From the NCBI GenBank assembly GCA_965657945.1, contig CBFHPW010000002.1:99818-163817 (forward strand): a stretch of 64,000 nucleotides of DNA, read 5' to 3'. Positions 16,132 through 43,700 of the stretch are shown here, piece after piece. The DNA is from Flavobacteriales bacterium. GTDB taxonomy: Bacteria; Bacteroidota; Bacteroidia; Flavobacteriales_D; CAJJDF01. The notes below the pieces were generated by a model. That model was not told the DNA's origin. It worked only from the letters and a program-made list of their open reading frames with translations, and did no database searches. The position numbers and the translations under genes were made by a program. Within the stretch, counting starts at the first letter, position 1; every line of letters starts with the position of its first letter.

Positions 16132-16336
16132 GAATACGATCACATTTCATTGGTTTTTACAATCAATTAAGACGAGTAGGTAACAATCCTATTCCCAAAA
16201 AATAACGGGAAAAATTGTACAATTTGGTTAGTCAATAGTTAAAACGTGCATCTAAAGCAAAATAAACCACCCTAACTCAATAGCATTTCACATTTTTTGT
16301 ATGTTCTGTTTTAAGTCCTTTATTAAAACAAACAAG

Positions 16337-17299
16337 ATGAAAAATTTAACGTATTTATTCCTGCCCCTTTTTATCGCCCTACAGGTAAGCGCCCAACAAA
16401 ATGACATGTGGATCAAGACTCCATTTCTTGGAGGAAATTCAACTTTCCCTCCTACCTACCAAAGAGCTTCTTTTGAACTCGATTTTTCAAACTATGCCAA
16501 CAACACGTATTTCAACCATAGCCGTCCGTTACTCAGAATTTCTGAAATTAAAGAACTAGGAAGCGGTGTTTTATCTCCTCCAAAAAGAGACGTGTTGCTT
16601 TTCATGACTTCAACGGGTCGTTTTGGATTATCAACTCCCTCACCAAATTCCCTGTTTCATTTGCACAAAACTGGAAGTAAAAAAGGGTTGTTTACGCTTT
16701 CTTTCACCTCGGCAACTGGAGCTCAAATAAACTCGAGCGAACTGGGAATCAACTCAACCAACCAAAGTTATTGGCTCGCAGGAGCTACTGCAATTGGCGG
16801 TAACAAGTCCTTGTTCAGTCCCGGATTTACTACGGCTAGTAAAATTGAATTTGACAACGAAGGCATTTCTTTCTTTTCCTGCGCAAAACAAGGAACTTCC
16901 CCCATCATTTCTTCTACAAACTGGAAAAAAGGAATGACCATTGACAAACTGGGCAGAGTGAGAATTGGAACACAATCCTTACTAGGAGGCTCGCACAAGG
17001 ACTTCAAATTATCAGTAGATGGGAAAATAGTAGCAAAAAAAATCATTGTGACAAACGGACCTGAATGGGCCGACTATGTTTTTGCTCCTGATTACTTTTT
17101 AATGCCTCTCTCTGATTTAAAATTATTCATTGATAAAAATCATCACCTACCAAATGTCCCCAGCGCTGTTGAAATTGCTGAAGATGGCGTGGATGTATTT
17201 GAAATGAATAACCTGTTGTTAGAAAAAATAGAAGAAATGACATTGCATCTAATTCAAATGGAAGAAAGAGTGAAAGTCTTAGAAAATAGAGAAGATTGA
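16337..17299 (+). CDS. Secreted hypothetical protein with a tail-fibre-like C-terminal module
   Basis: Signal peptide MKNLTYLFLPLFIALQVSAQ, using the ATG at 16337. The C-terminus VDGKIVAKKIIVTNGPEWADYVFAPDYFLMPLSDLKLFIDKNHHLPNVPSAVEIAEDG...LLLEKIEEMTLHLIQ matches, from memory, a module found on Bacteroidota proteins often annotated as tail-fibre-domain proteins. Confidence 0.7.
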   Translation: MKNLTYLFLPLFIALQVSAQQNDMWIKTPFLGGNSTFPPTYQRASFELDFSNYANNTYFNHSRPLLRISEIKELGSGVLSPPKRDVLLFMTSTGRFGLSTPSPNSLFHLHKTGSKKGLFTLSFTSATGAQINSSELGINSTNQSYWLAGATAIGGNKSLFSPGFTTASKIEFDNEGISFFSCAKQGTSPIISSTNWKKGMTIDKLGRVRIGTQSLLGGSHKDFKLSVDGKIVAKKIIVTNGPEWADYVFAPDYFLMPLSDLKLFIDKNHHLPNVPSAVEIAEDGVDVFEMNNLLLEKIEEMTLHLIQMEERVKVLENRED

Positions 17300-17335
17300 A
17301 AACCATTTTTCATTAATTGCCAAAAAAAATAAGGT

Positions 17336-18121
17336 ATGAAAAAAATACTTACCACCTGCCTAGCTGTCCTACTGTTGTTTGCTTGCAAAAAAGAACCCAA
17401 AGAAGAACCAAACCCGTGTTGCGGAGAAACTCCCGTAAAAGCCGATTTTGGCATGATGAATGGAACTTCTTTAACCCTGCGTTTTGTCGGATTTTATCCC
17501 GATGTAGCCTTTGCAAGAGAATTCATTACGTTCAAGGCAATTCCCGAAGACCCCGAAGCTTCCTACACCTGGTACCTGGGAAGCGAAGTGATTACGGGCT
17601 CAACCTTTCAACGAGATTTTAGCCCCACCAAAACAACTGGCGAAAACAACATTCCTATTACTATGGTGATAAGAAAAACACCCAACAAAGAATGCTTTCC
17701 TAATGACGAGGGTTATGATTCCATTACCAAAACCATCACCCTAGTAGATGATTATTGTGAGTACTTAACCAATGGAGATTTTAAAGTGCTTTTTACTGGT
17801 GCAGCCGATAGTTCTATTGTACGTATAAGAAATTGGGATTATAGGTTTATCGGAGATTATACCCCTGATTGTGAAGAAGGTCATATAGGCATTGGTTTTG
17901 ATTTCAAAAATCCATTAGATACAAATTGGGCTACAAATAATAGTGGCACTCAATTTTATTCAAGTATTATTTTCGATAAATTTTCAACAACAAAAGGTGA
18001 TTGGTTTAATGGTTATTTTAAAGTAAATCCGTCAACCTTAAAAGTAAGTGCTGAATACAATATATACAGGTTTAATGGACCAAGTGATAGGTATTCATTT
18101 AAAGGAAGAAAAATAAACTAA
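17336..18121 (+). CDS. Lipoprotein, paralogue A of a tandem triplet (unknown function)
   Basis: Lipobox LLLFAC with Cys17, then KKEPKEEPNPCCGE. About 165 aa are near-identical to B and C. The C-terminal third is variable and ends in the conserved YSFKGRKIN. Confidence 0.85.
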   Translation: MKKILTTCLAVLLLFACKKEPKEEPNPCCGETPVKADFGMMNGTSLTLRFVGFYPDVAFAREFITFKAIPEDPEASYTWYLGSEVITGSTFQRDFSPTKTTGENNIPITMVIRKTPNKECFPNDEGYDSITKTITLVDDYCEYLTNGDFKVLFTGAADSSIVRIRNWDYRFIGDYTPDCEEGHIGIGFDFKNPLDTNWATNNSGTQFYSSIIFDKFSTTKGDWFNGYFKVNPSTLKVSAEYNIYRFNGPSDRYSFKGRKIN

Positions 18122-18127
18122 AAAATT

Positions 18128-18913
18128 ATGAAAAACCTACTTACCACCTGCCTAGCTATCCTTCTGTTGTTTGCTTGCAAAAAAGAACCCAAAGAAGAAC
18201 CAAACCCGTGCTGTGGAGAAACTCCCGTAAAAGCCGATTTTGGCATGATGAATGGAACTTCTCACACCATAAGGTGGTTTGGTTTTCATCCCGATGTAGC
18301 CTTTGGAAGAAAATTTATTACGTTCAAGGCAATTCCCGAAGACCCCGAAGCTACCTACACTTGGTACCTGGGAAGCGAAGTGATAACAGGCTCAACCTTT
18401 CAACGAGATTTTAGCCCAACTAAAACAACTGGCGAAAACAACATTCCTATTACTATGGTGATAAGAAAAACACCCAACAAAGAATGCTTTCCTAATGACC
18501 AGGGTTATGATTCCATTACCAAAACCATCACCCTAGTAGATGATTACTGCGACTATTTAACCAATGGGGATTTTAAAGTGCTTTTTGCTGGTGCAGCCGA
18601 TAGTTCAATCGTTCGTATAAGAAATTGGGATTATAGGTTTATCGGAGATTATACGCCTGATTGTGAAGAAGGTCATATAGGCATTGGTTTTGATTTCAAA
18701 AATCAATTAGATACAAATTGGGGGACAGCTTCTAGTGGCACTCAATTTTATTCAAGTATAAGATTTAAAGAAATTTCAACAACAAATGGTGATTGGTCTA
18801 ACGGTTTCTTTAAAGTTAATCCCAACACATTGGCTGTGGAAGCAGAATACGATATATTTAGAAGTCGAGGAACTCATGATACGTATAGCTTTAAAGGAAG
18901 AAAAATAAATTAA
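18128..18913 (+). CDS. Lipoprotein, paralogue B of a tandem triplet
   Basis: Starts exactly 792 nt after A, with the same lipobox. Its C-terminal region is related to A. Confidence 0.85.
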   Translation: MKNLLTTCLAILLLFACKKEPKEEPNPCCGETPVKADFGMMNGTSHTIRWFGFHPDVAFGRKFITFKAIPEDPEATYTWYLGSEVITGSTFQRDFSPTKTTGENNIPITMVIRKTPNKECFPNDQGYDSITKTITLVDDYCDYLTNGDFKVLFAGAADSSIVRIRNWDYRFIGDYTPDCEEGHIGIGFDFKNQLDTNWGTASSGTQFYSSIRFKEISTTNGDWSNGFFKVNPNTLAVEAEYDIFRSRGTHDTYSFKGRKIN

Positions 18914-18919
18914 AAAATT

Positions 18920-19717
18920 ATGAAAAACCTACTTACCACCTGCCTAGCTATCCTTCTGTTGTTTGCTTGCAAAAAAGAACCCAAAGAAGAACCAAACCCG
19001 TGCTGCGGAGAAACTCCCGTAAAAGCCGATTTTGGCATGATGAATGGAACTTCGTTAACCCTGCGTTTTGTCGGATTTTATCCCGATGTAGCCTTTGCAA
19101 GAGAATTCATTACGTTCAAGGCAATTCCCGAAGACCCCGAAGCTACCTACACCTGGTACCTGGGAAGCGAAGTGATAACAGGCTCAACCTTTCAACGAGA
19201 TTTTAGTCCCACCAAAACAACTGGCGAAAACAACATTCCTATTACTATGGTGATAAGAAAAACCCCCAACAAAGAGTGTTTTCCTAATGACGAGGGTTAT
19301 GATTCCATTACCAAAACCATCACCCTAGTAGATGATTATTGTGAGTACTTAACCAATGGAGATTTTAAAGTGCTTTTTACTGGTGCAGCCGATAGTTCAA
19401 TCGTTCGTGTGAGGAATTGGTTTAGCAGCTCAGCAGGTAATTATACGCTTGATTGTCAAAAGAGCGGTGTATGTATGATAGGATTTGATGGGGATAATAA
19501 AGCAGATACTTTGTGGAATGCAACCCCACCGTTTGAAAGACCCACTCAATTTTATTCTCAATTAATTTACAAAAATGCTACTAGTACTTTTAATAACCTT
19601 TATGGTGGTTATTTTAGAGTAGGAAAAAACAGTAAAACTGTAAGTGCACGTTACAAAATATACAGAGAAGGTGGGGCTAATGATTCTTATTCATTTAAAG
19701 GAAGAAAAATAAATTAA
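18920..19717 (+). CDS. Lipoprotein, paralogue C of a tandem triplet
   Basis: Starts exactly 792 nt after B. The N-module is near-identical to A and B. Residues from ~165 on (NWFSSSAGNYTLDCQKSGVCMIGFDGDN...) have strongly diverged. Confidence 0.85.
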   Translation: MKNLLTTCLAILLLFACKKEPKEEPNPCCGETPVKADFGMMNGTSLTLRFVGFYPDVAFAREFITFKAIPEDPEATYTWYLGSEVITGSTFQRDFSPTKTTGENNIPITMVIRKTPNKECFPNDEGYDSITKTITLVDDYCEYLTNGDFKVLFTGAADSSIVRVRNWFSSSAGNYTLDCQKSGVCMIGFDGDNKADTLWNATPPFERPTQFYSQLIYKNATSTFNNLYGGYFRVGKNSKTVSARYKIYREGGANDSYSFKGRKIN

Positions 19718-19723
19718 CTAGTT

Positions 19724-22375
19724 ATGAAATATTTTACATTATTAATTACCTTATTTATCACATCAAATGCAGTTGCGCAAGAATGTCAAGATTGTTTTGA
19801 AGATAAAAACATCATTACGAATCCAGAAGATCCTGCGAATTGTGAAATGGATTTTTTTGCCAATGGCAGAAATAATCAGTTTTTGAATTCGTTTAATTGG
19901 GGAAAAAACAATGGAACTCTCTTTCAATCTATATCTCTCAACCCTAATGCAGGTTGGTCACCAAGCTTAACTCCCGCTTTCTTTACCATGAGATCACCCT
20001 ATTTATTAGGTTATCTTTATAAACCAGGTGAACCTATAGAAAATTACGATTTTCAATGGGAAGACGGATGGGAATTAATGTTTTTAAATACAGGATATTG
20101 GCCTGATGGAAGTGAGATTAATGTAGCAAACCCTGCTGACAAAATTGACTTTGTAGTTCCGCCTATTAATTCTAGTGTTCCATTTTTCGTATTATACAAT
20201 CGATATACTGGAAAAATGAGGTTTCTATTTAACGTTTATGCCGAACTAGGAACTTTTCAAAACATTTCCTTACAACTCGGATATTTATCTGGAGGAACGG
20301 CAAGCGGTATTTTTAGGCATGGCAATAACCTAGATAGAGCCTTGGATCAAGAGACTATAACACCATCGTTTTCTACACATTTTACATTTTTCAATAATCC
20401 CAACGAGTGGTTTACGTCAGACATTCAATTAGGTTATGACCCTTGTGTTTGCAACATTCAAAGCCTTTTTAACATTGATCTTTACGGCTTTGAAGAAACA
20501 AATATAGAAATGTTAGCAAGAGGGATTTCAGTGACTAGACCTTTACAAATAGGAGGGCAACCTACTTATACCGATTATTTAAACATCAGTGCCGATCGTC
20601 TAAAAACCAATGCCAATGGTGCTTTAATTTATAAAACGTTGGATGGAATGTTAAATGAATACAAAAAGAATCTGGACATTTATCACAACCAACTGAATGA
20701 CTACAATACATGGGGGGCTCAACTTCATCGAAATCTTTACGACTTAACCAAGCAAGGGCTGAATACTGGCTTTCAATCTGTTATCCCTGCCTCGGTGTAT
20801 CATCACCTGGGAGGAAATGTAGCCGGTATTGTCGGTTCCTTCAAGGGTGGGAATGGAACGAAAGCAGATTCAGCCAAATACTCCAAACAATTAAGCAAAC
20901 AGAGCAAAGCAGCTCTTGGAAATTTATCCGATCAACTGTTTGTTTCTCTCATCAAAAAAAGCAACAAACCCATTAAACCTACAATGCCAGTAGCCTCTTT
21001 TAGTGAAATGCGGATAAAAGGAACTTTACAAAAAGAATCTTACATAACATTAGGTCAATATTTAAATCCTGGTCATTTAACATCACAAACAGGAACTTTC
21101 GACCCAGTACGCTATCCCATTTACAACAAACCCGTAGGGTTGTTTGCTTTGTTGGAAACGCCTAGTTTGGTGGGTTGGCAGTCTTTGGAGGACAAAAATT
21201 ATTGGGAGAGAAATCATTACCATCCATTTTTTAAGTCACACCTATGGTATAAAAAAGGCTTGAAAACAAGTTTTAAACTAAAATCATCACTCCAGTATAA
21301 ATTCAATGACAATGTCGACATCGACAAAGAGCAAACTGAAATTTATGGACAGTATAGAATCGAGATTTCCAAAAATTTCAATCATCCATCAAGTTCCAAA
21401 AACCTACAATTATTGGAAGATAACAACCTCATTATTTTGCACGAATTTGATGATAAAATTATTCTTCAGAGCGATTGGTATCCCATAGAAATTTTAGGTG
21501 AGATTGTGGCTTCAACGAGCATGATTTTCGATCACGGCTGGATTAATAAAAACAAAAAGACTTATGAGCCAATCCTAGAAAAAGTACAACTCACTTTAAT
21601 GGCAGATATTTATTTCGAATCTCTCGGTTCAGACGGAAGAGAAAAAAACACGACCCAAGTGTTTACTTATGAATTGTACAACAGGGAAAAGGAAGTCGAT
21701 TTAATTGCCGAAAAAGGCAGTTGGGAATCAGATAAAAGAGAGGTTCAAAAATTCACACCAGGCACCATCGAAATAAAAGACGAAGTAATTAAACCATCTT
21801 CTGACTTTGTATGGGATGTGGTGGGCAATGAAATTCACATAAAAGCTGAGTATGTAAACCTACAAGGCAAAGTAGGAGTGCAACCTGGGTACAAGGCAAT
21901 CATTGAGGCATTTTGGGAAATAGAGGTGGATCCTACCATAGAGTTGGACAGGATTCAGCTCGAGGTAAAAAAAGATTTTTATGGATTCCCCGAACCAAGT
22001 GAGGTTACCCTCGATGAGCTAAAAGAATTCTGTGGCAATGACCAGAAATACAAAGCCAAGATAGTAAAAGAAGGCATCATAAATCCGAATACGGTGGAGG
22101 AAAAGAACGATACAGTGGAAGAAGACTTGAAAGAAATGAAGTTTATCTTGTTTCCCAATCCAACTTCGGAAATTGTCACGATTAACATACAGGGTGTTTC
22201 GGATGTTGAAAATGGGACAGTCCGAATTTTTGATTTAAGCGGAAAGGAAGTTTTGTCTAAAAACATACATTCCATTCGTTTTTCGGTTGATGTAACCACC
22301 CTAAGTAAAGGAATCTATTTTCTAGAGATAGGCACTAAGGAACAAAAAAAGGTAAAACGATTTATTAAAATATAG
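19724..22375 (+). CDS. 883-aa secreted protein of unknown function with a T9SS type-A C-terminal sorting domain
   Basis: Signal peptide MKYFTLLITLFITSNAVAQ. C-terminal ~79 aa (nt 22136-22372) read FILFPNPTSEIVTINIQG...GIYFLEIGTKEQKKVKRFIKI, a Por secretion-tail pattern. It starts 6 nt after lipoprotein C. Confidence 0.85.
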   Translation: MKYFTLLITLFITSNAVAQECQDCFEDKNIITNPEDPANCEMDFFANGRNNQFLNSFNWGKNNGTLFQSISLNPNAGWSPSLTPAFFTMRSPYLLGYLYKPGEPIENYDFQWEDGWELMFLNTGYWPDGSEINVANPADKIDFVVPPINSSVPFFVLYNRYTGKMRFLFNVYAELGTFQNISLQLGYLSGGTASGIFRHGNNLDRALDQETITPSFSTHFTFFNNPNEWFTSDIQLGYDPCVCNIQSLFNIDLYGFEETNIEMLARGISVTRPLQIGGQPTYTDYLNISADRLKTNANGALIYKTLDGMLNEYKKNLDIYHNQLNDYNTWGAQLHRNLYDLTKQGLNTGFQSVIPASVYHHLGGNVAGIVGSFKGGNGTKADSAKYSKQLSKQSKAALGNLSDQLFVSLIKKSNKPIKPTMPVASFSEMRIKGTLQKESYITLGQYLNPGHLTSQTGTFDPVRYPIYNKPVGLFALLETPSLVGWQSLEDKNYWERNHYHPFFKSHLWYKKGLKTSFKLKSSLQYKFNDNVDIDKEQTEIYGQYRIEISKNFNHPSSSKNLQLLEDNNLIILHEFDDKIILQSDWYPIEILGEIVASTSMIFDHGWINKNKKTYEPILEKVQLTLMADIYFESLGSDGREKNTTQVFTYELYNREKEVDLIAEKGSWESDKREVQKFTPGTIEIKDEVIKPSSDFVWDVVGNEIHIKAEYVNLQGKVGVQPGYKAIIEAFWEIEVDPTIELDRIQLEVKKDFYGFPEPSEVTLDELKEFCGNDQKYKAKIVKEGIINPNTVEEKNDTVEEDLKEMKFILFPNPTSEIVTINIQGVSDVENGTVRIFDLSGKEVLSKNIHSIRFSVDVTTLSKGIYFLEIGTKEQKKVKRFIKI

Positions 22376-22394
22376 AACGGAATCAGTCTGTTTT
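22376..22394 (+). terminator. Weak hairpin after the T9SS-cargo gene
   Basis: AACGGA (22376-22381) pairs with TCTGTT (22387-22392, one G-U pair), followed by TT-AATT. Marginal. Confidence 0.25.
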
Positions 22395-22459
22395 AATTCA
22401 TTCATTTACCCATTTAATTTATTGAAAAAGCCATATCTTTGACACTCATCAAGCAAATT

Positions 22460-23614
22460 ATGAGTAAAAAAGGTATCGCAATACTAGGTTCTACGGGTTC
22501 TATAGGCACTCAAGCCCTAGAGGTAATTGAACAGTTTCCCGAAAAATTTGAATTGGTGGTCCTTACGGCCAACCGAAATGCCGATTTGTTAATCGAACAG
22601 GCACTTAAATTCAAGCCAAATACGGTCGTAATTGTAGATGAAACACAGTACCAGAAAGTGAAAGATGTTCTGTGGGAACACGACATAAAAGTATATGCTG
22701 GCGAAGAGTCATTGAATCAAGTGGTAGAAATGAACGAGGTAGAAACTGTACTTACGGCAACAGTTGGATATTCTGGATTACTGCCTACCATTCATGCGAT
22801 TAACGCAGGAAAAAATATTGCTTTAGCCAATAAAGAAACACTCGTAGTAGCAGGAGACATCATCACCAAACTTGCCCAACAAAAAGGAGTGAACATTTAC
22901 CCAGTCGATTCGGAACATTCAGCAATTTTTCAATGTCTTGCAGGAAACTTTGAGAATAAAATCGAAAAACTTATTCTAACTGCATCTGGAGGACCATTTA
23001 GAGGAAAAACATACGAGGAACTAAAATCAGTGACAAGAGAACAGGCACTGAAACATCCCAACTGGGAAATGGGCGCAAAAATCACGATTGATTCGGCTTC
23101 ATTGATGAATAAAGGCTTGGAGGTAATTGAAGCCAAGTGGCTGTTTGGCATTCCTGCCGAAAAAATTGAGGTGGTCGTGCATCCACAATCCATCATTCAC
23201 TCCGCGGTGCAATTTGAAGACAGCAGTATTTTAGCTCAAATGGGAATTCCAAGCATGAAAGTGCCTATTCAATACGCTTTGACTTATCCAGAGAGGCCAA
23301 AATCAAATTTTGAGCGGTTTAGTTTTTTCGATTATCCAAACCTTACTTTTGAAAAACCAGACATGGAAACTTTTAAAAACCTGAAACTGGCGTTTGATGT
23401 AATTGACAAAGGTGGAAACGCTGCTTGTGTTCTTAACGCTGCTAATGAAATTACGAACAAGGCGTTTTTAGATGGCAGAATCTCGTTTTTGGACATTGGG
23501 GATATTAATGAAAAAACGATAGAAAGCACTACTTTCATTTCCCAACCAACACTAGAAGATTACATTGCAACCAATACTGAGGCAAGAAGAATTGCCGAAG
23601 AATTTTGCCATTAA
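22460..23614 (+). CDS. dxr: 1-deoxy-D-xylulose-5-phosphate reductoisomerase
   Basis: GIAILGSTGSIGTQAL NADPH motif, LANKE, DSEHSAIFQC and NKGLEVIEA. I prefer the ATG at 22460 over the TTG at 22439. Confidence 0.95.
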   Translation: MSKKGIAILGSTGSIGTQALEVIEQFPEKFELVVLTANRNADLLIEQALKFKPNTVVIVDETQYQKVKDVLWEHDIKVYAGEESLNQVVEMNEVETVLTATVGYSGLLPTIHAINAGKNIALANKETLVVAGDIITKLAQQKGVNIYPVDSEHSAIFQCLAGNFENKIEKLILTASGGPFRGKTYEELKSVTREQALKHPNWEMGAKITIDSASLMNKGLEVIEAKWLFGIPAEKIEVVVHPQSIIHSAVQFEDSSILAQMGIPSMKVPIQYALTYPERPKSNFERFSFFDYPNLTFEKPDMETFKNLKLAFDVIDKGGNAACVLNAANEITNKAFLDGRISFLDIGDINEKTIESTTFISQPTLEDYIATNTEARRIAEEFCH

Positions 23615-23637
23615 CATTTTTAACACTTTAACGTTTC

Positions 23638-24978
23638 ATGGAAACTATTTCAGTTATATTTCAATTATTGCTTTCTCTCTCTATTTTAGTCGTTTTACAC
23701 GAATTGGGACACTTTATTCCTGCAAGATTATTCAAAATAAGGGTAGAGAAATTTTATCTTTTCTTTAATCCTTGGTTCTCTTTATTTAAATACAAAAAGG
23801 GGGATACAGAATACGGAATTGGTTGGTTACCACTTGGTGGATTTGTAAAAATCGCTGGAATGATAGACGAATCAATGGATACAGACCAAATGAAACAACC
23901 TCCAAAACCGGATGAGTTTCGGTCCAAACCAGCTTGGCAAAGGCTCATTGTAATGATTGGCGGAGTAGTTGTCAATGTTCTTTTGGCCTTCTTCTTATAC
24001 GCTATGATTGCTTTTGTTTGGGGAAAAGATTATGTGAAAAATGAAGACCATATCCACGGAATAGAAGTGCTTACGCCAAACTTGATTGGAGAAAACCTTT
24101 TTCAAAATGGGGATAAAATTATTTCCGTTGAGGGCGAACCGCTAGAAGAGCTGATGCAAGCCAACAACAAGATGCTCATCAATCAAGCGAAACAATATAA
24201 AGTAGAACGAAATGGCGAAATAATTGATATCACCATTAAGGACGAAGGGGTGGATTACATGTTGAAAAAGGAAAGCATTGTATTTATTCCTCGTGTACCT
24301 ACCCAAATAGATTCTGTTTTGCCGAATGGAATAGGCAAAGACTTGGGGCTAAAGAAAGGCGACAAAATACTCACTATCAACGACAAAGATGTCGCTATGT
24401 TTGATCAGTTTAGAAATAAATTAACTGAGTTTAAAACAGCCAAAGTTGATTCCTTTGAATTGGTTGTGAATAGAGATGGACAAAAACTGGTATTCGCCTC
24501 AGTTTTTGACACTACCTACAAACTTGGATTTCTCAACGTATTTTTTCTCACTCATGATTTCAAAAAAACTCATGTAGATTATTCGTTCGCAGAGTCCATA
24601 CCCGAGGGGATATATCTGGCTAAAAACACGTTGGCCGATTACGTAAATCAGTTCAAACTAATTTTTACGAAAAAAGAAGCAGTGAAAAAGGTAGGAGGAT
24701 TTGGAACGATTGCCAAAATATTCCCCAAAACTTGGGATTGGAAAATATTTTGGTCTCGAACAGCTTTTTTATCAGTGGTTTTAGCTTTCATGAATATATT
24801 GCCAATTCCGGCACTCGATGGAGGGCACGTCATGTTCTTGCTCTACGAAATGGTATCTGGCAGGCCACCAAGCGACAAATTTCTGGAAAAAGCCCAAATG
24901 TTTGGGTTCTTTATTTTGTTATTCGTCATGCTTTACGCAAATGGGAATGACTTTTACCGTTGGTTTACAGGTCAATAA
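23638..24978 (+). CDS. rseP: RIP site-2 zinc metalloprotease RseP
   Basis: HELGHF zinc motif in TM1, PDZ-like central region, and C-terminal NILPIPALDGGH motif. Confidence 0.9.
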   Translation: METISVIFQLLLSLSILVVLHELGHFIPARLFKIRVEKFYLFFNPWFSLFKYKKGDTEYGIGWLPLGGFVKIAGMIDESMDTDQMKQPPKPDEFRSKPAWQRLIVMIGGVVVNVLLAFFLYAMIAFVWGKDYVKNEDHIHGIEVLTPNLIGENLFQNGDKIISVEGEPLEELMQANNKMLINQAKQYKVERNGEIIDITIKDEGVDYMLKKESIVFIPRVPTQIDSVLPNGIGKDLGLKKGDKILTINDKDVAMFDQFRNKLTEFKTAKVDSFELVVNRDGQKLVFASVFDTTYKLGFLNVFFLTHDFKKTHVDYSFAESIPEGIYLAKNTLADYVNQFKLIFTKKEAVKKVGGFGTIAKIFPKTWDWKIFWSRTAFLSVVLAFMNILPIPALDGGHVMFLLYEMVSGRPPSDKFLEKAQMFGFFILLFVMLYANGNDFYRWFTGQ

Positions 24979-24980
24979 TA

Positions 24981-25145
24981 ATGTATTACACGATAGTAGG
25001 AATAGTAGTAGTGATTGTAGCTTTTTTTATGGCTGCTACACAAAAAGCACGTGGTTACAATTTTTGGCGATACTTTGTCGTTTCTATCGTGGTCGTAGCC
25101 GGAATATATATGATGATAGAAAACCTCATCAACAAACCGAGATAA
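24981..25145 (+). CDS. Small two-TM membrane protein (hypothetical)
   Basis: MYYTIVGIVVVIVAFFMAATQKARGYNFWRYFVVSIVVVAGIYMMIENLINKPR. The ATG at 24981 lies just after the rseP stop. Confidence 0.5.
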   Translation: MYYTIVGIVVVIVAFFMAATQKARGYNFWRYFVVSIVVVAGIYMMIENLINKPR

Positions 25146-25213
25146 GTGTAACCAAAAACTACTAAGAGTTATTTTTATTTTCTATATTTCGATGACAGAA
25201 TAAAGCCCCTCAT

Positions 25214-26758
25214 TTGAAGTCAAAAAAATTATACTCCACCAAACAAGTCTGGAAAACCATCCTTTCCATTTTGGCACTAATCATAATTGGATTATCGCTC
25301 TGGTACACCAATTACTTGGCCAAAAAAATCCAAAACGAAGAACGATTAAGAGTGAAATTATGGAGTGAAACAGTAAAAAAACAAGCTCAACTTATCACTT
25401 TAACTAACCAAACTTTTGATCAGCTCAGGGCCGAAGAAAGTGGCAACATACAAGATTGGGCATTTGCTTTGAAAGAATCGAGCAGAGAACAGAACGATTA
25501 CACGTTTATCTATTCCTTCCTGTCCAAGACAAACAACATTCCCAAGATTCTTGAGTACGTAGATTTAAAGTCTGGAAACCGGGAAGTTACCTTCTCGGGC
25601 AATGACATTCCGTTTTCGATTGAAGAATTTGAATCAAAAAAAGAGTTCAATGATTCCGTAAGGATATTCGTTCAATCGTGGGATTCACTGAATCCGCCAA
25701 TTAAAATCCCAAATACGGCCGTTCAATTTCAAATGCTTCATTACGGCAATTCCAAACTTTTTGAAGAATTAAAAACGAAACAAAAATCGCTTATTTCTTC
25801 TTTCGAGAATGAATTGATTGCAAACTCCTCGTCTATTCCTATTTTGTACGTGGATTCAGCAACGAATGAAATCAGAAGAACGATCAACATTGAAGAAGAA
25901 AAAATCATAGATTCTGCCTCGATAGCTGCTACTATTTCGCAATTAAAATCTGAGAATCCAAGAATAGAAGTTTCTTTTGGCGGAGAAAACAAAGGCTACA
26001 TTTACTACGCAGAATCTACCTTACTCAAACAATTGCGGTTTTACCCTTGGGTGCAATTAGTCATTATCCTATTGTTTTTAATGGTATCCTATTTCTTATT
26101 TAGCACATTCCGAAAAGCTGAACAAAACCAAGTTTGGGCCGGAATGGCAAAAGAAACTGCCCATCAATTAGGCACACCACTTTCCTCTCTTATGGCTTGG
26201 CTTGAAATAATAAAAGCCGATGGAGTTCCCGAATCTTCAATCAAAGAAATGAACAAAGATATTAACCGGCTCAACACCATTACCGATAGGTTTTCGAAGA
26301 TTGGCTCTGAGGTACGAACAACGGAAGAAAACATTTTCTCTGAGGTTGATAAATCACTTGATTACCTCAGAAGTAGAGTTTCCAAACAAGTGGACTTGAG
26401 TGTAGTTGGCTCGCGAAATGCCATTGCTTACATCAACGCTTCGTTGTTTGAATGGGTAATCGAAAATATAACAAAAAATGCCATTGATGCGATTCAAGGA
26501 AAAAAAGGAAGCATCAAGTTCGAAATCTCCGAAAATGACAAGAAAGTCATTCTAGACATTACTGATACAGGAAAAGGAATTCCTTCTTCTAATTTCAAAT
26601 CAATCTTCAATCCAGGATTCTCGACCAAAGAAAGAGGCTGGGGATTGGGATTGAGTCTTGTGAAACGCATTGTAGAAGAGCAATTGAAAGGAAAAATCTT
26701 TGTGCTAACTTCTAAAATTGATCAAGGAACTACGTTTAGGATTACGTTGAAGAAATAA
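25214..26758 (+). CDS. Membrane-bound sensor histidine kinase
   Basis: Two TM segments flank a ~250-aa extracytoplasmic region. H-box ETAHQLGTPLSSL. HATPase_c motifs NAIDA, DTGKGIP and GWGLGLS. TTG is the only start available after the in-frame TGA at 25193. Confidence 0.8.
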   Translation: MKSKKLYSTKQVWKTILSILALIIIGLSLWYTNYLAKKIQNEERLRVKLWSETVKKQAQLITLTNQTFDQLRAEESGNIQDWAFALKESSREQNDYTFIYSFLSKTNNIPKILEYVDLKSGNREVTFSGNDIPFSIEEFESKKEFNDSVRIFVQSWDSLNPPIKIPNTAVQFQMLHYGNSKLFEELKTKQKSLISSFENELIANSSSIPILYVDSATNEIRRTINIEEEKIIDSASIAATISQLKSENPRIEVSFGGENKGYIYYAESTLLKQLRFYPWVQLVIILLFLMVSYFLFSTFRKAEQNQVWAGMAKETAHQLGTPLSSLMAWLEIIKADGVPESSIKEMNKDINRLNTITDRFSKIGSEVRTTEENIFSEVDKSLDYLRSRVSKQVDLSVVGSRNAIAYINASLFEWVIENITKNAIDAIQGKKGSIKFEISENDKKVILDITDTGKGIPSSNFKSIFNPGFSTKERGWGLGLSLVKRIVEEQLKGKIFVLTSKIDQGTTFRITLKK

Positions 26759-26901
26759 GTTTTAGTTCATTCAAAACTCCATGTCATCTCCGTGAAAACG
26801 GACATCTTATTCATCCGCTATGATTCTCGTTTTAAGTTTACTACTTTGGTGAGAATGTCAAACGAAAAGATTAAATATCTTTGTAACATAAATACATTAA
26901 A

Positions 26902-27363
26902 ATGCCAACCTACAGAGCTTTATCCTTAGAAGAATTAGAATTATTTGAACAAGAATTCAAAGAATTCCTTGCCGTAAATGGCATTGATGCTGATTTGTGG
27001 ACTAAAATAAAAATAGAAGATTCTGAAAAAGTAGAAAAACTCATTGAATCTTTTAGTGATGTGATTTACAATTCTGTCCTTTTAAAACTTGAGTACGTGG
27101 AATTCGCAACAGAAAACGACATTAAGTATTTCTACTATGGCAAAGAAAAAGCAGAACTCATTGGCTTACAAAGCAATGAAATCACATTTGACGACCCAAA
27201 AAAAGTAGCCAGAGCGATAAAAGAAAGGAAAGTTTCTATCAAGTCCTATAAAACCACAAAGGAGTATGCTCAAAAAAGAGAAATCGAACTATTCGAGATG
27301 CTAAAAAATGGCTGTCAACCCAGTGATGGCAAAATGTTTAAACTACTCGCCAGCATTGTTTAA
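26902..27363 (+). CDS. Conserved hypothetical cytoplasmic protein
   Basis: Clean 153-aa ORF with an acidic N-terminal half and no motif I recognise. It overlaps the dxs stop by 4 nt, convergently. Confidence 0.6.
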   Translation: MPTYRALSLEELELFEQEFKEFLAVNGIDADLWTKIKIEDSEKVEKLIESFSDVIYNSVLLKLEYVEFATENDIKYFYYGKEKAELIGLQSNEITFDDPKKVARAIKERKVSIKSYKTTKEYAQKREIELFEMLKNGCQPSDGKMFKLLASIV

Positions 27364-29306
27364 ACTAGGTTGTTGGTTGCCGTTTTAATCTCTGTGGAAA
27401 CTCCTGTCATTTTTTCCACTTCAGATAAAATAGATTCAGCATCAAAACCACATTCTTTGTACAACTCTGCTTGAGTTCCGTGTTCGATGTATCTATCAGG
27501 GATCCCCAATCTTTTTACTTGGGCTTGGTAACCATTTTCCGACATAAACTCGAGTACAGCTGAGCCCAAACCTCCCAAAATGGTTCCATCTTCTACCGTA
27601 ATTACTTTATCAAATTTAGTAAAAACTTCGTGTAGGATTGTTTCATCCATCGGTTTCAGGAATCGCATATCGTAATGAGCTGCGCTTATACCTTTCTCTT
27701 GAAACTGTCTTTCAATTTTCGCAATGAAAGTACCTGTGATTCCAATAGTCAAAATGGCTACGTCCGAACCATTCTTGAGCTTTCTCCCTTGTCCAATGGT
27801 CAATTTTTGCATTGGTTTTTTCCAATCTGGAGTAATTCCTTTTCCTCTTGGATAACGAATTGAAAAAGGACCATTCTGATCTGCCTGAGCAGTATACATT
27901 AAATTTCTTAATTCCAATTCATCCATTGGTGCAGAAACAATCATGTTAGGAATTGATCGCATATAAGCCAAATCGTAGGCTCCATGGTGGGTTGGGCCAT
28001 CGGCACCAACCAAACCTCCTCTATCCAAACAAAATACGACATTCAGATTTTGAATAGCTACATCATGCAACACTTGATCGTAAGCTCTTTGCATAAATGA
28101 GGAATATATATTACAAAATGGAATCATGCCTTGAGTAGCTAATCCCGCAGAAAAAGTTACCGCATGTTGTTCAGCAATACCTACATCAAAGGCTCTATCT
28201 GGCATTGCCTTCATCATGATGTTCAGCGAACAACCAGTTGGCATTGCAGGAGTTACCCCCGTAATTTTATCATTCTTTTCCGCCAATTCCACAATCGTGT
28301 GTCCAAATACATCTTGAAACTTTGGAGCATCTGTAGATTTTGGTAACACCTTTACTATTTCTCCCGTTTCTTTATTGAATAGTCCGGGAGCATGCCAAAC
28401 AGTGGTATCGCCTTCTTCAGCCGGTTTAAATCCTTTTCCTTTTTCTGTCAAGCAATGCACAATTTTTGGTCCGGGCAAGTGTTTTATTTCATTAAATAAT
28501 TTCACCATCGCCTGAACATCGTGACCATCTACTGGTCCAAAATATCGGAAATTCAATGACTCAAAGTAATTACTCTTTTGATAAATACTTCCTTTCAGAG
28601 CATCGCTCACTTTGTGAACAATTTGTTGGGCACTTGATCCAAATGAACTTAGTTTACCCAATAAATTCCATACTTCATCCTTTACTTTGTTGTAGGGTTT
28701 TGAAGCCGATAAATCTCTTAAATATTCTTTTAAGGCACCAACATTTGGGTCAATAGACATACAATTGTCATTCAAAACCACAATCATGTTTGAGTCTTCT
28801 ATTCCTCCATGATTAAGACCTTCGAATGCCAAACCAGCAGTCATTGCACCATCTCCAATTACGGCAATGTGTTGCCTCTCTTTTTCTCCTTTTATTTGAC
28901 TAGCAACAGCCATTCCAAGAGCTGCTGAGATTGAGGTGGAAGAGTGCCCTACTCCAAACGTATCGTACTCACTTTCACTCCTCTTTGGAAAACCACTTAT
29001 TCCTTTGTACACTCTATTGGTGTCAAATACATCTTTTCTACCCGTTATGATTTTGTGTCCATAAGCCTGGTGACCCACATCCCAAACCAATTGATCATAA
29101 GGAGTATTGAATACATAATGAATTGCAGAGGTAAGTTCAACCACACCCAAACTTGCACCAAAATGCCCTCCTTTTTCAGAAACCACATCTACAATAAACT
29201 GCCTCAATTCTTTGCAAAATTGCGGCAATTGTTCTGGCGTCACCAATTTTTTTAAGTCCTCAGGACTATTAATTTTTGAGAGGATTTCTCCTGCTTGAAA
29301 AGGCAT
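27360..29306 (-). CDS. dxs: 1-deoxy-D-xylulose-5-phosphate synthase
   Basis: TPP-binding GDGAMTAG...LNDN, DVGHQAYGHKI and DVGIAEQHAVTFSAGLA signatures. Confidence 0.95.
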   Translation of the reverse strand: MPFQAGEILSKINSPEDLKKLVTPEQLPQFCKELRQFIVDVVSEKGGHFGASLGVVELTSAIHYVFNTPYDQLVWDVGHQAYGHKIITGRKDVFDTNRVYKGISGFPKRSESEYDTFGVGHSSTSISAALGMAVASQIKGEKERQHIAVIGDGAMTAGLAFEGLNHGGIEDSNMIVVLNDNCMSIDPNVGALKEYLRDLSASKPYNKVKDEVWNLLGKLSSFGSSAQQIVHKVSDALKGSIYQKSNYFESLNFRYFGPVDGHDVQAMVKLFNEIKHLPGPKIVHCLTEKGKGFKPAEEGDTTVWHAPGLFNKETGEIVKVLPKSTDAPKFQDVFGHTIVELAEKNDKITGVTPAMPTGCSLNIMMKAMPDRAFDVGIAEQHAVTFSAGLATQGMIPFCNIYSSFMQRAYDQVLHDVAIQNLNVVFCLDRGGLVGADGPTHHGAYDLAYMRSIPNMIVSAPMDELELRNLMYTAQADQNGPFSIRYPRGKGITPDWKKPMQKLTIGQGRKLKNGSDVAILTIGITGTFIAKIERQFQEKGISAAHYDMRFLKPMDETILHEVFTKFDKVITVEDGTILGGLGSAVLEFMSENGYQAQVKRLGIPDRYIEHGTQAELYKECGFDAESILSEVEKMTGVSTEIKTATNNLV

Positions 29307-40722: not shown

Positions 40723-43700
40723 TTACTTATTAATCTGTACGTAACCGTTGTATACTTTTTTGTCTACTGTGTTGGTTCCTAAATCGATTACATAGAAGTA
40801 AGTTCCGTTTGGTAGCATTCCATTGCCCATCGCTTTTCTTGCCATGTCATCTACGTTAGACTTCCCGATAAACTCATTCGTGTAGCCTCTTTGTTCAAAT
40901 ACTAAGGTTCCGTATCGGTTAAAGATTTTTACTACGTTCTGTGGGTAGTTTCCTAACTCTGCTAAATCCCAGAAGTCATTCTTCCCATCTCCGTTTGGTG
41001 AGATAAATTGTGGGATATCTAATTCCTGCTCACAGTTCACTATCACATCAAACGTACATGAGTCTGCATTCATCGAGGCATCAGTCGTTACGATAGTTAT
41101 CGTTACTCTTCCGTTTACTGCTGACACTTCGGTTCCTGCTGCTGGGAACTGCTCTGTTGTGGTTCCATTAACTATACAGTTGTCTGTGTTTGAACTCTCC
41201 CATGCGAAGTCTTCTACCACATAAGTACAAGTTGTGTTTCTCACCGTTCTGTTCTTATCCGCTGGACAGAATACTACTGGCGCTACATTGTCTTCTACTG
41301 TTACCGTAGCTACACAACTCGATACGTTTCCATACAAGTCAGTTACAGTAAGGGTGACTTGATTTCTTCCTACGTTGCTGCAGTCAAAATCTGTCTTGTC
41401 TACATTCACACTCGATACTGCACAGTTGTCAAAGCTTCCACCATCTACATCACTCGCTACTATCGTAGCTTGTCCATTGGCATCTAAGCTAATCGTAATG
41501 TTCTGACAGACTGCTGTTGGTGCTAAGTTGTCTACCACTGTTACTGTGGCTGTACAACTTGCTGTGTTTCCACTTGCATCTACTCCAGTGAGTGTCACCG
41601 TGTTCACTCCTACTTGAGTACAGTTGAATGTACTGTTCGATAGGCTCAACGTGATTCCACAGTTGTCGCTGCTTCCGTTGTCTACATCTATCGTAGTGAT
41701 GGTTGCGTTTCCTGTTGCATCTAATGCGATGGTTGTTGATTTACACAACACTACTGGTGCTAACGTATCTAGGATAGTCAACGTGGTTGTACACGTGGAT
41801 CTGTTTCCACTTGCGTCTACTCCAGTAAGTGTTACCGTGGTTGTTCCTATATCGGCACAAGTGAATGTGCTTCTGGATACACTCATCGTTACTATGCCAC
41901 AGTTGTCACTGCTTCCTCCATCTACTTCACTTGCTGTTAATGTTGCCATGCCCATTGCGTCCAAGTAAATCGTTGCGGGTGCACAACTCATGATTGGAGC
42001 TAATGTATCCAGTACTGTGATTGCACTTGTACAAGTTGATGTGTTTCCTGATGCATCCGTTACGGTAAGCATTGCCATACTCGTTCCTAAGTCAGTACAA
42101 GTATAGGTGGACTGAGAGACACTCATCGTGAATGTACAGTTGTCACTGCTTCCGTCATTGATCATGGCAGCTGTTAGGCTTGCTGTTCCTGATGCGTTCA
42201 AGTACAACGTATCTGCTTTGCAAATAGCTACTGGAGCTATCGTATCCAATACGGTTACTACGGCTACACATGTTGAGGTGTTTCCTGCTACATCGGTTGC
42301 CGTTAACGTTACGTTGTTTGCTCCGGCATCTGAACAAGTAAACAGGGTATCCGTGATCGACAACGTTACTCCACAGATGTCACTGCTTCCATTGTCAATA
42401 TCACTTGCTACTAATCTTGCCACTCCATTAGAGTCTAAGTAAATCGTGGCTGACTTACACAAGGCTATCGGATTGATGGCATCTACTACGGTTACTACTG
42501 CCGTACAAGTTGAAGTGTTTCCACTTGCGTCTGTTCCGGTAAGGGTGACCATGTTTGTTCCTAAGTCGGCACAAGTAAAGGTGGTTTGTGACAAGCTCAG
42601 TGTGAAGTCACAGTTATCCGTACTTCCATTGTCCACATCCATAGTAGTGATTGTCGCTACTCCTAAAGCATCCAAGTTTACTGTTACTGGTTGACAGTTC
42701 ATCACTGGTGATAATGTGTCTTGAATATCAAATGCAACTAATCCTACGGTTGTGTTTCCAGAAAAATCAGTAGCAGTTATCACCATAGTATCAATTCCTA
42801 TATCTGAACAATACACATAATTTTTAGAAATAGTTATTGATAAACCATCACAGTTATCAAATGCAGGTCCAGGAAGACCAGATGTTCCTAAAGCAAAAGA
42901 ATAAGGTAGTATTGGTGCTTTTCCTGTTGAATCTAAATAAATATCAAAAGCACCGCCTGATAAATAAGGAGGCATTACTGGTGGTGTGTTATCTACTACA
43001 GTTACTGTTGCTGTACAAGTATCTGAGTTTCCGTTTCCATCGGTTCCTATCAACGTTACCGTATTTGTACCTAGATCGGCACAAGTAAAGGCAGTGTTAG
43101 ATAAACTCAATGTCATTCCACAATTGTCACTGCTTCCATTGTCAACGTCTGCAATCGTTAATGTTGCATTTCCTGAACTGTCTAAGTAAATAGTTGCTGG
43201 CTTACAGATTACTACCGGTGCTGTCGCATCTACAACAGTTACTACTGCCGTACACGAATCTACATTTCCGCTTCCATCTATTCCTACTAACGTTACCGTG
43301 TTCGTTCCAATGTTCGTACAATCAAAGGTTGTGTTTGACAAACTCATTGTCATTCCACAATTATCCGAACTTCCATTGTTTACATCACTTGTTGTTATAA
43401 TTGCGTTTCCTGATGCATCCAAGTTTACTGTTACTGATTGACAAACCATGGTCGGTGCCAAAGTATCCAGTACTGTTACAGTCGTTGTACAGGTACTTGT
43501 TAACCCTTGTGCATCTCTCACGGTTAACGTTACCGTATTCGCTCCAATTGATGAACAGTTGAACGTAGTTTGAGAAAGACTCAAGCTTACTGAACAGTTG
43601 TCGCTACTACTGTTATCGATGTCGCTTGCAGCTAAGGTAGCCACTCCTGAAGCGTTCAGGTAGATCGTATCTGGTCGACAACTTGCTACTGGTGGCGTTA

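Follow-up and report, generated by a model that had tools for sequence, protein, structure and literature searches.

Extra copies of partner genes beside a large variable gene are known from several bacterial loci. The contact-dependent growth inhibition (CDI) loci with their cdiA-CT/cdiI pairs and the Rhs polymorphic toxin loci carry orphan toxin-tip and immunity modules, and the Vlp/Vsa proteins of Mycoplasma and the Vsp/Vlp/Mlp proteins of Borrelia form multigene families of variable surface lipoproteins with conserved 5' ends. Here we describe a locus of an already known kind, a polymorphic and recombining array of partner genes, which is new in being built from two unnamed protein families. 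It lies in a 64,000-nucleotide stretch of DNA from a Flavobacteriales bacterium (assembly GCA_965657945.1, contig CBFHPW010000002.1, positions 99,818 to 163,817), hereafter called the window, and consists of three tandem lipoprotein genes, A, B and C, followed by a gene for a protein predicted to be sorted by the type IX secretion system (T9SS).

The locus shares with the CDI and Rhs loci the conserved homology arms around variable cassettes, the surplus partner genes accompanied by truncated pieces of the large gene, and arrays that vary between strains. It differs from them in being a mirror image, with the variable part at the N terminus and the partner upstream, and in that the variable domains of the family are all mutually homologous rather than unrelated toxin folds, with no toxin domain identified. 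Tandem paralogues with a conserved signal peptide and N terminus, variable C terminal regions and recombination between copies are also typical of the lipoprotein families of Mycoplasma and Borrelia. In contrast to these, the window has no phase-variation switch (no invertible element, simple-sequence tract or diversity-generating retroelement was found), and the copies are apparently co-transcribed, belong to another phylum and are coupled to a T9SS partner.

Two toxin systems of the Bacteroidota are also relevant. The cholesterol-dependent cytolysin-like (CDCL) two-component pore-forming toxins have a lipoprotein immunity protein, BcdI, encoded upstream (PMC11169675; PMC11901371). As in the CDCL loci, a lipoprotein gene of the window immediately precedes a gene that encodes a secreted beta-rich protein, and the locus differs between strains. 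However, no CDC/MACPF-like domain or fold was detected in the T9SS protein of the window, and this protein is predicted to be T9SS-sorted, whereas CDCL proteins are secreted as lipoproteins or as cargo of outer membrane vesicles. Furthermore, the lipoprotein studied here occurs in one to seven variable copies, and the system is known from sequence alone. The BSAP (MACPF) toxins of Bacteroidales are encoded next to a resistant orthologue of the surface protein or lipoprotein that they target (PMC12853789, PMC11901371). The resemblance lies in a strain-specific secreted protein beside a variable outer-membrane protein or lipoprotein, where non-producers may retain the resistant allele. The T9SS protein of the window has no MACPF domain, however, and stacked receptor alleles would be harmful under the BSAP logic, yet the alleles of the window are stacked.

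Organisation of the lipoprotein array

The three genes are located on the forward strand at 17336-18121 (copy A, 261 aa), 18128-18913 (copy B, 261 aa) and 18920-19717 (copy C, 265 aa), the last of them directly 5' of the T9SS gene. The comparisons reported below largely establish that they represent alleles of one polymorphic outer-membrane lipoprotein of an unnamed family, stacked in tandem. Their start codons are spaced by exactly 792 nt, and the same junction, TAAAAAATTATG (stop codon, 6 nt, start codon; forward strand), is found at 18119-18130 and again at 18911-18922, as the original prediction had described from the letters of the DNA. The junction between copy C and the T9SS gene reads TAACTAGTTATG. 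The prediction had called the triplication exact, which is correct for the register of the starts but not for the third unit, which is 804 nt long and in its 3' third only about 55% identical to A and B at the nucleotide level, the divergence starting from nt 490. Copies A and B are 88.3% identical over 786 nt, and over the first 541 nt copy C is 93.9% identical to A and 91.1% identical to B.

All three genes are composed of two modules. The conserved 5' module comprises codons 1-163 (A 17336-17824, B 18128-18616, C 18920-19408; forward strand), is 93-96% identical among the copies and has a dN/dS of 0.03-0.08. In the structure model described below, it would span the signal peptide, an Ig/PKD-like domain and the first two strands of a barrel. 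The variable 3' module comprises codons 164-254 (A 17825-18097, B 18617-18889, C 19409-19693; forward strand). The variation sets in at residue 167, ends at about residue 254 and is followed by the invariant tail (Y/F)xFKGRKIN, which in all three copies reads YSFKGRKIN, as was noted previously. The pattern of sharing between the copies reported in the original prediction was also recovered when they were compared: B groups with C in codons 1-12 and at GTGATAACAGGC and AGTTCAATCGTTCGT, and A groups with C in codons 45-63 and at DEGY, CEY and LFTG. The back end of copy C had appeared unrelated to the others. It is actually homologous, with 45-47% amino acid identity to A and B, and the motifs DC, GFD, DTxW, QFYS and (N/G)GxF are retained.

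Co-transcription of A, B and C is likely, because terminator-like sites are absent between the genes. The GC content of the array is the same as that of its surroundings, and no further copies were found in the window. Tandem Repeats Finder did not call the array, as the longest period of this tool (500) is shorter than 792. Open reading frames (ORFs) of 50-101 aa are present in alternative frames of each unit (17317-17622, 18175-18414 and 18967-19206, forward strand) and antisense to the units (17349-17516 and 18948-19100, reverse strand). They recur because the underlying DNA repeats, and show no sign of being genes.

Allelic types and recombination between strains

Close relatives of the window were taken from public assemblies, and are metagenome-assembled genomes (MAGs) or metagenome contigs, referred to here by locus numbers (L003 and so on). 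Since their flanks are 98.4-99.0% identical to the window, they represent strains of one species. The number of lipoprotein copies differs between them, with one each in L003, L076 and L081, two in L080 and three in the window. The contigs of L074, L075 and L079 are cut inside arrays of at least two to three copies, and those of L084, L085 and L086 begin inside the last copy, so that the copy numbers are lower bounds.

The 3' module proved to be a mosaic whose two blocks are reassorted from one strain to another. Copy A combines block alpha with block a, copy B combines alpha with a b-like block, and L076 combines alpha with b. The combination of beta and b is found in L081, L080a and L074b, that of gamma and a in L080b, L085 and L075, and a distinct type II in L003, L078, L079 and L074a. 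The combination in copy C is unique, and nothing in the data comes close to the 3' module of this copy (19409-19693), the highest nucleotide identity being 60%. The first sub-block of copy A is 97.3% identical to that of L076 at the nucleotide level, and the second is 95-96% identical to those of L080b and L075 but only 69.8% identical to that of copy B. Blocks common to A or B and other strains show that the paralogues of the window are alleles elsewhere. The 3' types are common to different strains at 86-100% amino acid identity, and to another species at 90%. Copy B also carries a divergent patch in its 5' module (codons 44-63, 18257-18316, forward strand), which is 73% identical to A and C and 95-97% identical to L074b and L080a, from other samples, at the nucleotide level. 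This patch is an old alternative allele, also present in L074b and L080a. A third allele of the same patch is present in a more distant genome.

The original prediction held that the differences between the copies do not fit one tree. This is untestable on A, B and C, because any three-taxon tree is a star and three sequences cannot violate it. Once four close relatives were added, giving seven sequences, four-gamete violations were found. In the 489-nt 5' module, with 33 informative sites, 201 of the 528 site pairs were incompatible, at least 10 recombination events are required (Rmin 10), and the pairwise homoplasy index (PHI) test was significant (p=0.002). For the whole gene, Rmin was 34 and the PHI test gave p=0.0005. 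Among the three copies themselves, the site patterns fell into 12 runs where 23.7 were expected (p=5e-5). Of the 27 differences specific to B, 16 were concentrated in one 54-nt stretch (p=5e-5). Recombination, the proposed cause of the mosaic, thereby has formal support.

Codons 64-163 have a dS of 0.15-0.21 and a dN/dS of 0.03-0.08. In codons 164-254 the dS is 0.47 and the dN/dS 0.38 between A and B, and 1.06-1.30 and 0.5-0.6, respectively, when C is compared with A or B. The dN/dS of the 3' module is thus raised, yet below 1. Flanking housekeeping genes have a dS of about 0.03 between strains. As the dS of the 3' module is far above that of the 5' module (0.47-1.30 compared with 0.15-0.21), the modules differ in age and not in constraint alone, which agrees with the earlier suggestion of two modules with different histories.

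Two further parts of the earlier interpretation were not supported. The first was that the copies are homogenised within the array. Within each copy the nearest neighbour changes from segment to segment, and the 5' module of each copy is equally close or closer to alleles of other strains. Since outside alleles are at least as similar to the 5' modules of A, B and C as these are to one another, there is no specific evidence for homogenisation in the array, and concerted evolution within it is unsupported by the nearest-neighbour analysis. The 5' module is a species-wide, freely recombining module of low diversity. The second was that the C terminal module diversifies freely in place. The 3' modules are instead old discrete types, reshuffled as two sub-blocks. 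The original observation is therefore confirmed, and its interpretation partly supported, as recombination and modularity hold.

The regular 792-nt register and the identical junctions are also what a plain recent triplication would leave behind, followed by relaxed constraint on the C terminus and without any recombination. This explanation is hardly tenable. It is refuted by the four-gamete violations and the significant PHI tests, by a dS of the 3' module that exceeds that of the 5' module three- to ninefold, by 3' types common to other strains and another species, and by nearest neighbours that vary by segment.

Specialised mechanisms of variation were also considered. The differences between copies are not biased towards adenine (22 of 54 and 18 of 54 in the two copies), the neighbouring genes are housekeeping genes, and an additional copy of the sequence is absent from the window, which rules out a diversity-generating retroelement. 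Only short inverted matches with 72-94% complementarity were present and no site-specific recombinase was found in the syntenic neighbourhood, which rules out an invertible element or shufflon. Thus, retroelement mutagenesis and invertible switches are both excluded as sources of the variation.

The array or its mosaic structure might also be a chimera of co-occurring strains, given that the close relatives come from MAGs or metagenome contigs and that the repeat interrupts short-read assemblies. We consider such an artefact very improbable. All three reading frames are intact, and the blocks and patch alleles recur in independent samples. Furthermore, window positions 19380-26375 recur with 100% identity in L086, an independent short-read assembly that reproduces the unique part of copy C and the T9SS gene exactly; its contig breaks precisely where the unique sequence starts. 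Multi-copy arrays are also present in the genomes of cultured Brumimicrobium.

The anatomy of the locus suggests how the cassettes may be exchanged. The near-identical 489-nt 5' modules would serve as left homology arms and the conserved body of the T9SS gene as the right arm. Homologous exchange between strains could then swap the cassettes, and unequal exchange between 5' modules could add or remove whole 792-nt units.

The hypervariable zone and the T9SS-sorted protein

The zone of variability does not end with the array but runs on into the neighbouring T9SS gene, a point absent from the original prediction. This gene (19724-22375, forward strand) encodes a protein of 883 aa with a type A C terminal sorting domain at 22148-22366 (residues 809-882; Por_Secre_tail PF18962, E=9e-15; TIGR04183, E=1e-14). 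Nucleotide identity between the window and L003 is 99% as far as the middle of the lipoprotein gene and then drops to 54-64%, up to a point ~840 nt into the T9SS gene. These ~840 nt encode a hypervariable N terminal domain of about 280 residues (19724-20560, forward strand). A second variable patch follows at 20865-21164 (forward strand; about residues 380-480) with 76% nucleotide identity, after which the gene is 96-100% identical. From this profile, the hypervariable zone is one contiguous stretch across the gene boundary. Our data largely show that divergence within the species is confined to this zone, which comprises the lipoprotein 3' module and about 280 residues at the start of the T9SS protein. 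At least four types of the T9SS N-domain exist within the species.

Outside the sorting domain, no known domain was found in the T9SS protein with Pfam or NCBIfam, and matches of its AlphaFold model (mean predicted local distance difference test, pLDDT, 74.6) to PDB and viral structures were in the sorting domain only. The second patch is flanked by blocks of 97-100% identity and overlaps a low-confidence helical segment of the model. Long strands modelled around a helical segment had prompted a MACPF/CDC reading. This was unsupported by Pfam and Foldseek, as no MACPF/CDC domain was found in 48 family members (Pfam, E<=0.5) and none among the top 50 Foldseek PDB matches listed. The domain of the TANFOR-type polymorphic toxins (PMC7073777) is not present either. 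The search for the T9SS partner family returned at least 66 matches.

Two other regions of the window deserve mention. A T9SS sorting domain, here of the CHU_C type (type B), is also encoded together with an HYR domain by an ORF of 3,048 aa at 40723-49869 on the reverse strand, in a stretch with a GC content of 0.42-0.445 compared with about 0.36 elsewhere. At 26865-27680, covering a DUF6495 gene and the start of dxs, identity to L003 falls to 80-89% in a region that is otherwise about 99% identical.

The lipoprotein family

The lipobox reads MKKILTTCLAVLLLFA followed by the cleavage-site C, and is of the signal peptidase II type; in copy A it is LLFAC, with the cysteine at position 17. This Cys17 is invariant in all 28 aligned members. 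The AlphaFold2 model (pLDDT 83.7) is all-beta, with a predicted Ig/PKD-like sandwich at residues ~35-140 and a small predicted barrel at ~145-261. The boundary between conserved and variable sequence would lie two strands into the barrel. The two modules of the original prediction, which meet at about residue 166, would accordingly not correspond to domains in this model, where the domain boundary is at about residue 145.

Foldseek gave weak matches only, all with E>1e-3, to a PKD domain, lipocalins, the TbpB C-lobe, NHBA and a surface glycan-binding protein of Bacteroides. At the fold level the match to the PKD structure 1l0q was weak (probability 1.0, E=4e-3, template modelling (TM) score 0.25), as were those to the 8-stranded barrels of lipocalin, the TbpB C-lobe and NHBA (E>1e-3, TM 0.21-0.25). 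The likeness to the neisserial TbpB and NHBA and to lipocalins would thus consist in a small barrel on a lipid-anchored protein. These proteins have no sequence similarity to the lipoprotein of the window, however, and no Slam-type system is implied.

The statement of the original prediction that no domain is recognised was borne out by the profile searches. The 28 members had no match in Pfam at E<=0.5, PKD models included, and the lipoproteins and both of their neighbours gave no real match in Pfam, NCBIfam, PHROGs or PADLOC apart from the T9SS sorting domain. Sequence and profile searches of the PDB likewise gave no real match. Matches to Riean_0653 and Cor were weak and confined to the signal peptide, and were discarded. 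A profile search (E<=1e-3) gathered 1,185 clusters at 50% identity, nearly all of 250-290 residues. The lipoproteins belong to an unnamed family without a named domain.

Distribution of the gene cluster

The cluster begins in the window with a gene for a fibre-like protein (16301-17299, forward strand; 332 aa with a signal peptide). It is not hypervariable, being 98.2% identical to strain L003 at the nucleotide level, and the protein has no match in Pfam, NCBIfam or PHROG. Its C terminal domain of about 110 residues (window 16982-17293) has a coiled-coil end and no Pfam model, and is found in at least 188 proteins across the Bacteroidota and beyond. Some of these homologues are labelled endosialidase-like, trimeric autotransporter adhesin or cell wall anchor by their sources, which suggests that the domain is a shared fibre-end or chaperone-like module.

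When 185,579 species genomes were scanned for the family, 70 loci were found in Crocinitomicaceae, Brumimicrobium, Fluviicola, Lishizhenia, Cryomorphaceae, Owenweeksia and Saprospiraceae, with arrays of one to seven lipoprotein copies. A T9SS homologue adjoins the array in 48 of the 70 loci, usually directly downstream, and in L010, L011, L019 and L063 the stop and start codons at the lipoprotein-T9SS junction overlap by 1-4 nt. A homologue of the fibre-like gene adjoins it in 38. Taken together, these loci largely demonstrate a conserved operon-like cluster of a fibre-like protein, one to seven lipoproteins and a T9SS-sorted protein of about 900 aa. We found no paper that joins Crocinitomicaceae, T9SS and lipoproteins. 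In each of 16 arrays that were examined, the copies differ less in the N-domain than in the C-domain.

An extra lipoprotein of about 150 aa is present in 27 of the 70 loci, and the species of the window is without it. It closes the cluster, for example in L013 (8781-9233), L063 (8456-8911) and L022 (11616-12074), and its mature N terminus is typically CNKEKR, CDKNKR or similar. The sole database match was a sub-threshold one to the lipocalin-like GH43_C (E=0.023). In L013, L014 and L021, from Brumimicrobium and relatives, the signal peptides of the copies are 92-94% identical and the mature N-domains only 54-61%, a pattern in the sequences that suggests homogenisation restricted to the extreme 5' end in these arrays.

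Possible function of the array

In six loci (L001, L012, L014, L040, L056 and L059), truncated 5' fragments of the T9SS gene, coding for 40-340 residues, are located between the lipoprotein copies. In these other genera, the stacked unit is therefore a lipoprotein together with a T9SS N-domain. L042 contains two complete lipoprotein-T9SS modules, and no T9SS fragments are present between the extra copies of the window itself. The loci thus have the extra partners and truncated large-gene fragments that mark the orphan modules of polymorphic toxin-immunity systems, but lack the recognisable toxin domain of such systems. Arrays are also kept in L013, L037, L001 and L084, although the T9SS gene of these loci is missing or carries an internal deletion or a frameshift. 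Decayed T9SS genes beside intact lipoprotein genes are seen in L001 (9841-10755), L040 (8841-9339) and L084 (576-3234). The deletion in L001 joins residues ~1-37 to 615-883, that in L040 joins residues ~20-100 to the sorting domain, and L084 has a frameshift. Furthermore, the 3' type of the last lipoprotein copy co-varies with the N-type of the T9SS protein (Mantel r=0.65, p<0.001, eight non-independent loci).

These patterns may be read as follows. The variable barrel of the lipoprotein would be the cognate binding partner of the variable T9SS N-domain. The last copy would match the resident T9SS allele, and the upstream copies would be alleles gathered from other strains. The cell might then hold a protective, immunity-like repertoire of lipoproteins against a polymorphic secreted effector of itself and its neighbours, in an arrangement that would be the mirror image of toxin loci with orphan immunity arrays. 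That the barrel is the cognate partner of the N-domain, with the extra copies as a protective repertoire, is a reading that we favour tentatively. Its nearest precedents in the Bacteroidota are the CDCL toxin, with BcdI encoded upstream, and the BSAP toxins beside their resistant receptor orthologues (PMC11901371, PMC12853789). A wider proposal is possible but doubtful. Flavobacteriales and Saprospiraceae of marine and freshwater habitats would possess a hitherto overlooked polymorphic system acting between bacteria, in which a T9SS effector with N terminal specificity or toxicity would be neutralised by the upstream lipoprotein, and up to seven orphan alleles would serve as acquired defence. 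Such a system would be a T9SS-dependent mirror image of the orphan-immunity arrays of the CDI and Rhs loci.

Several observations weigh against a protective repertoire. No toxin, enzyme or pore-forming domain was recognised in the T9SS protein by profile searches or Foldseek. The co-variation of the last copy with the T9SS N-type could result from physical linkage alone, as the eight loci are not independent. A strict one-to-one pairing is moreover broken by L078, from a different species, where a lipoprotein end of the L003 type (90%) is paired with a T9SS N-domain of the L076 type (88%). The contig of L078 is cut, which leaves room for an upstream cognate copy. The mature N terminus of the lipoprotein, CKKEPKEE, with one acidic residue only between the lysines and the proline, does not conform to C-X-K-(D/E)2, the lipoprotein export signal (LES) of surface lipoproteins in Bacteroidota (PMC5080379); the signal differs from species to species. 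Most of the comparison sequences are metagenome assemblies, which break or possibly collapse at the repeat. Finally, the T9SS N-domain and the C-module of the lipoprotein are each homologous across types, which would fit a recognition pair equally well, and the fibre-like upstream gene hints at a surface structure.

The last two points lead to the idea that the T9SS protein, the lipoproteins and the fibre-like protein form a polymorphic surface complex for kin recognition or for adhesion between cells or to particles, in which the extra copies would broaden the range of partners. The T9SS protein would be attached to the surface through its type A sorting domain. Such a complex would account equally well for the co-variation and the stacking, and is consistent with the fibre/adhesin-like class of the upstream gene, with the predicted Ig-like domain and barrel of the lipoprotein and their weak structural matches to surface glycan-binding and TbpB/NHBA-type lipoproteins, and with a T9SS protein in which no toxin domain was found. 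We nevertheless regard it as somewhat unlikely, as some arrays are maintained where the T9SS gene or the fibre gene is missing, the surface export signal is not matched, and orphan truncated partner fragments are more usual in conflict loci.

L078, by re-assorting the variable parts of lipoprotein and T9SS protein, also bears on a different explanation, that the lipoproteins are autonomous ligand binders, antigens or phage receptors under diversifying or frequency-dependent selection, and are paired with the T9SS gene by hotspot linkage only. The many loci that have arrays but no T9SS gene, the raised dN/dS of the 3' module (0.4-0.6) and the weak resemblance of the predicted barrel to lipocalin-type binders would agree with this. 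It is unlikely, however, given that the gene order is kept across several families with junctions that overlap or measure 6 nt, that fragments of the T9SS gene travel alongside the lipoprotein copies, and that the variable zone is unbroken across the gene boundary. L078 and L076 are 88% identical in the T9SS N-domain and about 61% identical in the remainder of the protein, and L078 and L003 are 90% identical in the 3' module of the lipoprotein. Conservation across species is higher in the variable modules than in their scaffolds, which suggests either cross-species transfer of cassettes or long-lived balanced types.

Significance

The locus is one of few places where strains with about 99% identical flanks differ sharply, and such loci usually encode strain-level interactions, as in competition, recognition, or escape from phage or grazers. 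Antagonism dependent on the T9SS with dedicated immunity is, to our knowledge, barely documented. If the lipoproteins do confer immunity, such antagonism would be testable, because the cluster is carried by cultured strains, namely Brumimicrobium mesophilum JCM 14063, B. oceani C305, B. glaciale IC156, B. salinarum LHR20 and Putridiphycobacter roseus SM1701. Whatever its function, the locus is a clean natural case of modular cassette exchange, with homology arms, reassortment of sub-blocks and changes in copy number. In metagenomes it is further of practical use as a marker of strains, and is a place where assemblies are known to break. For marine Flavobacteriales, this strain-specific hotspot may represent a self/non-self or protection system.

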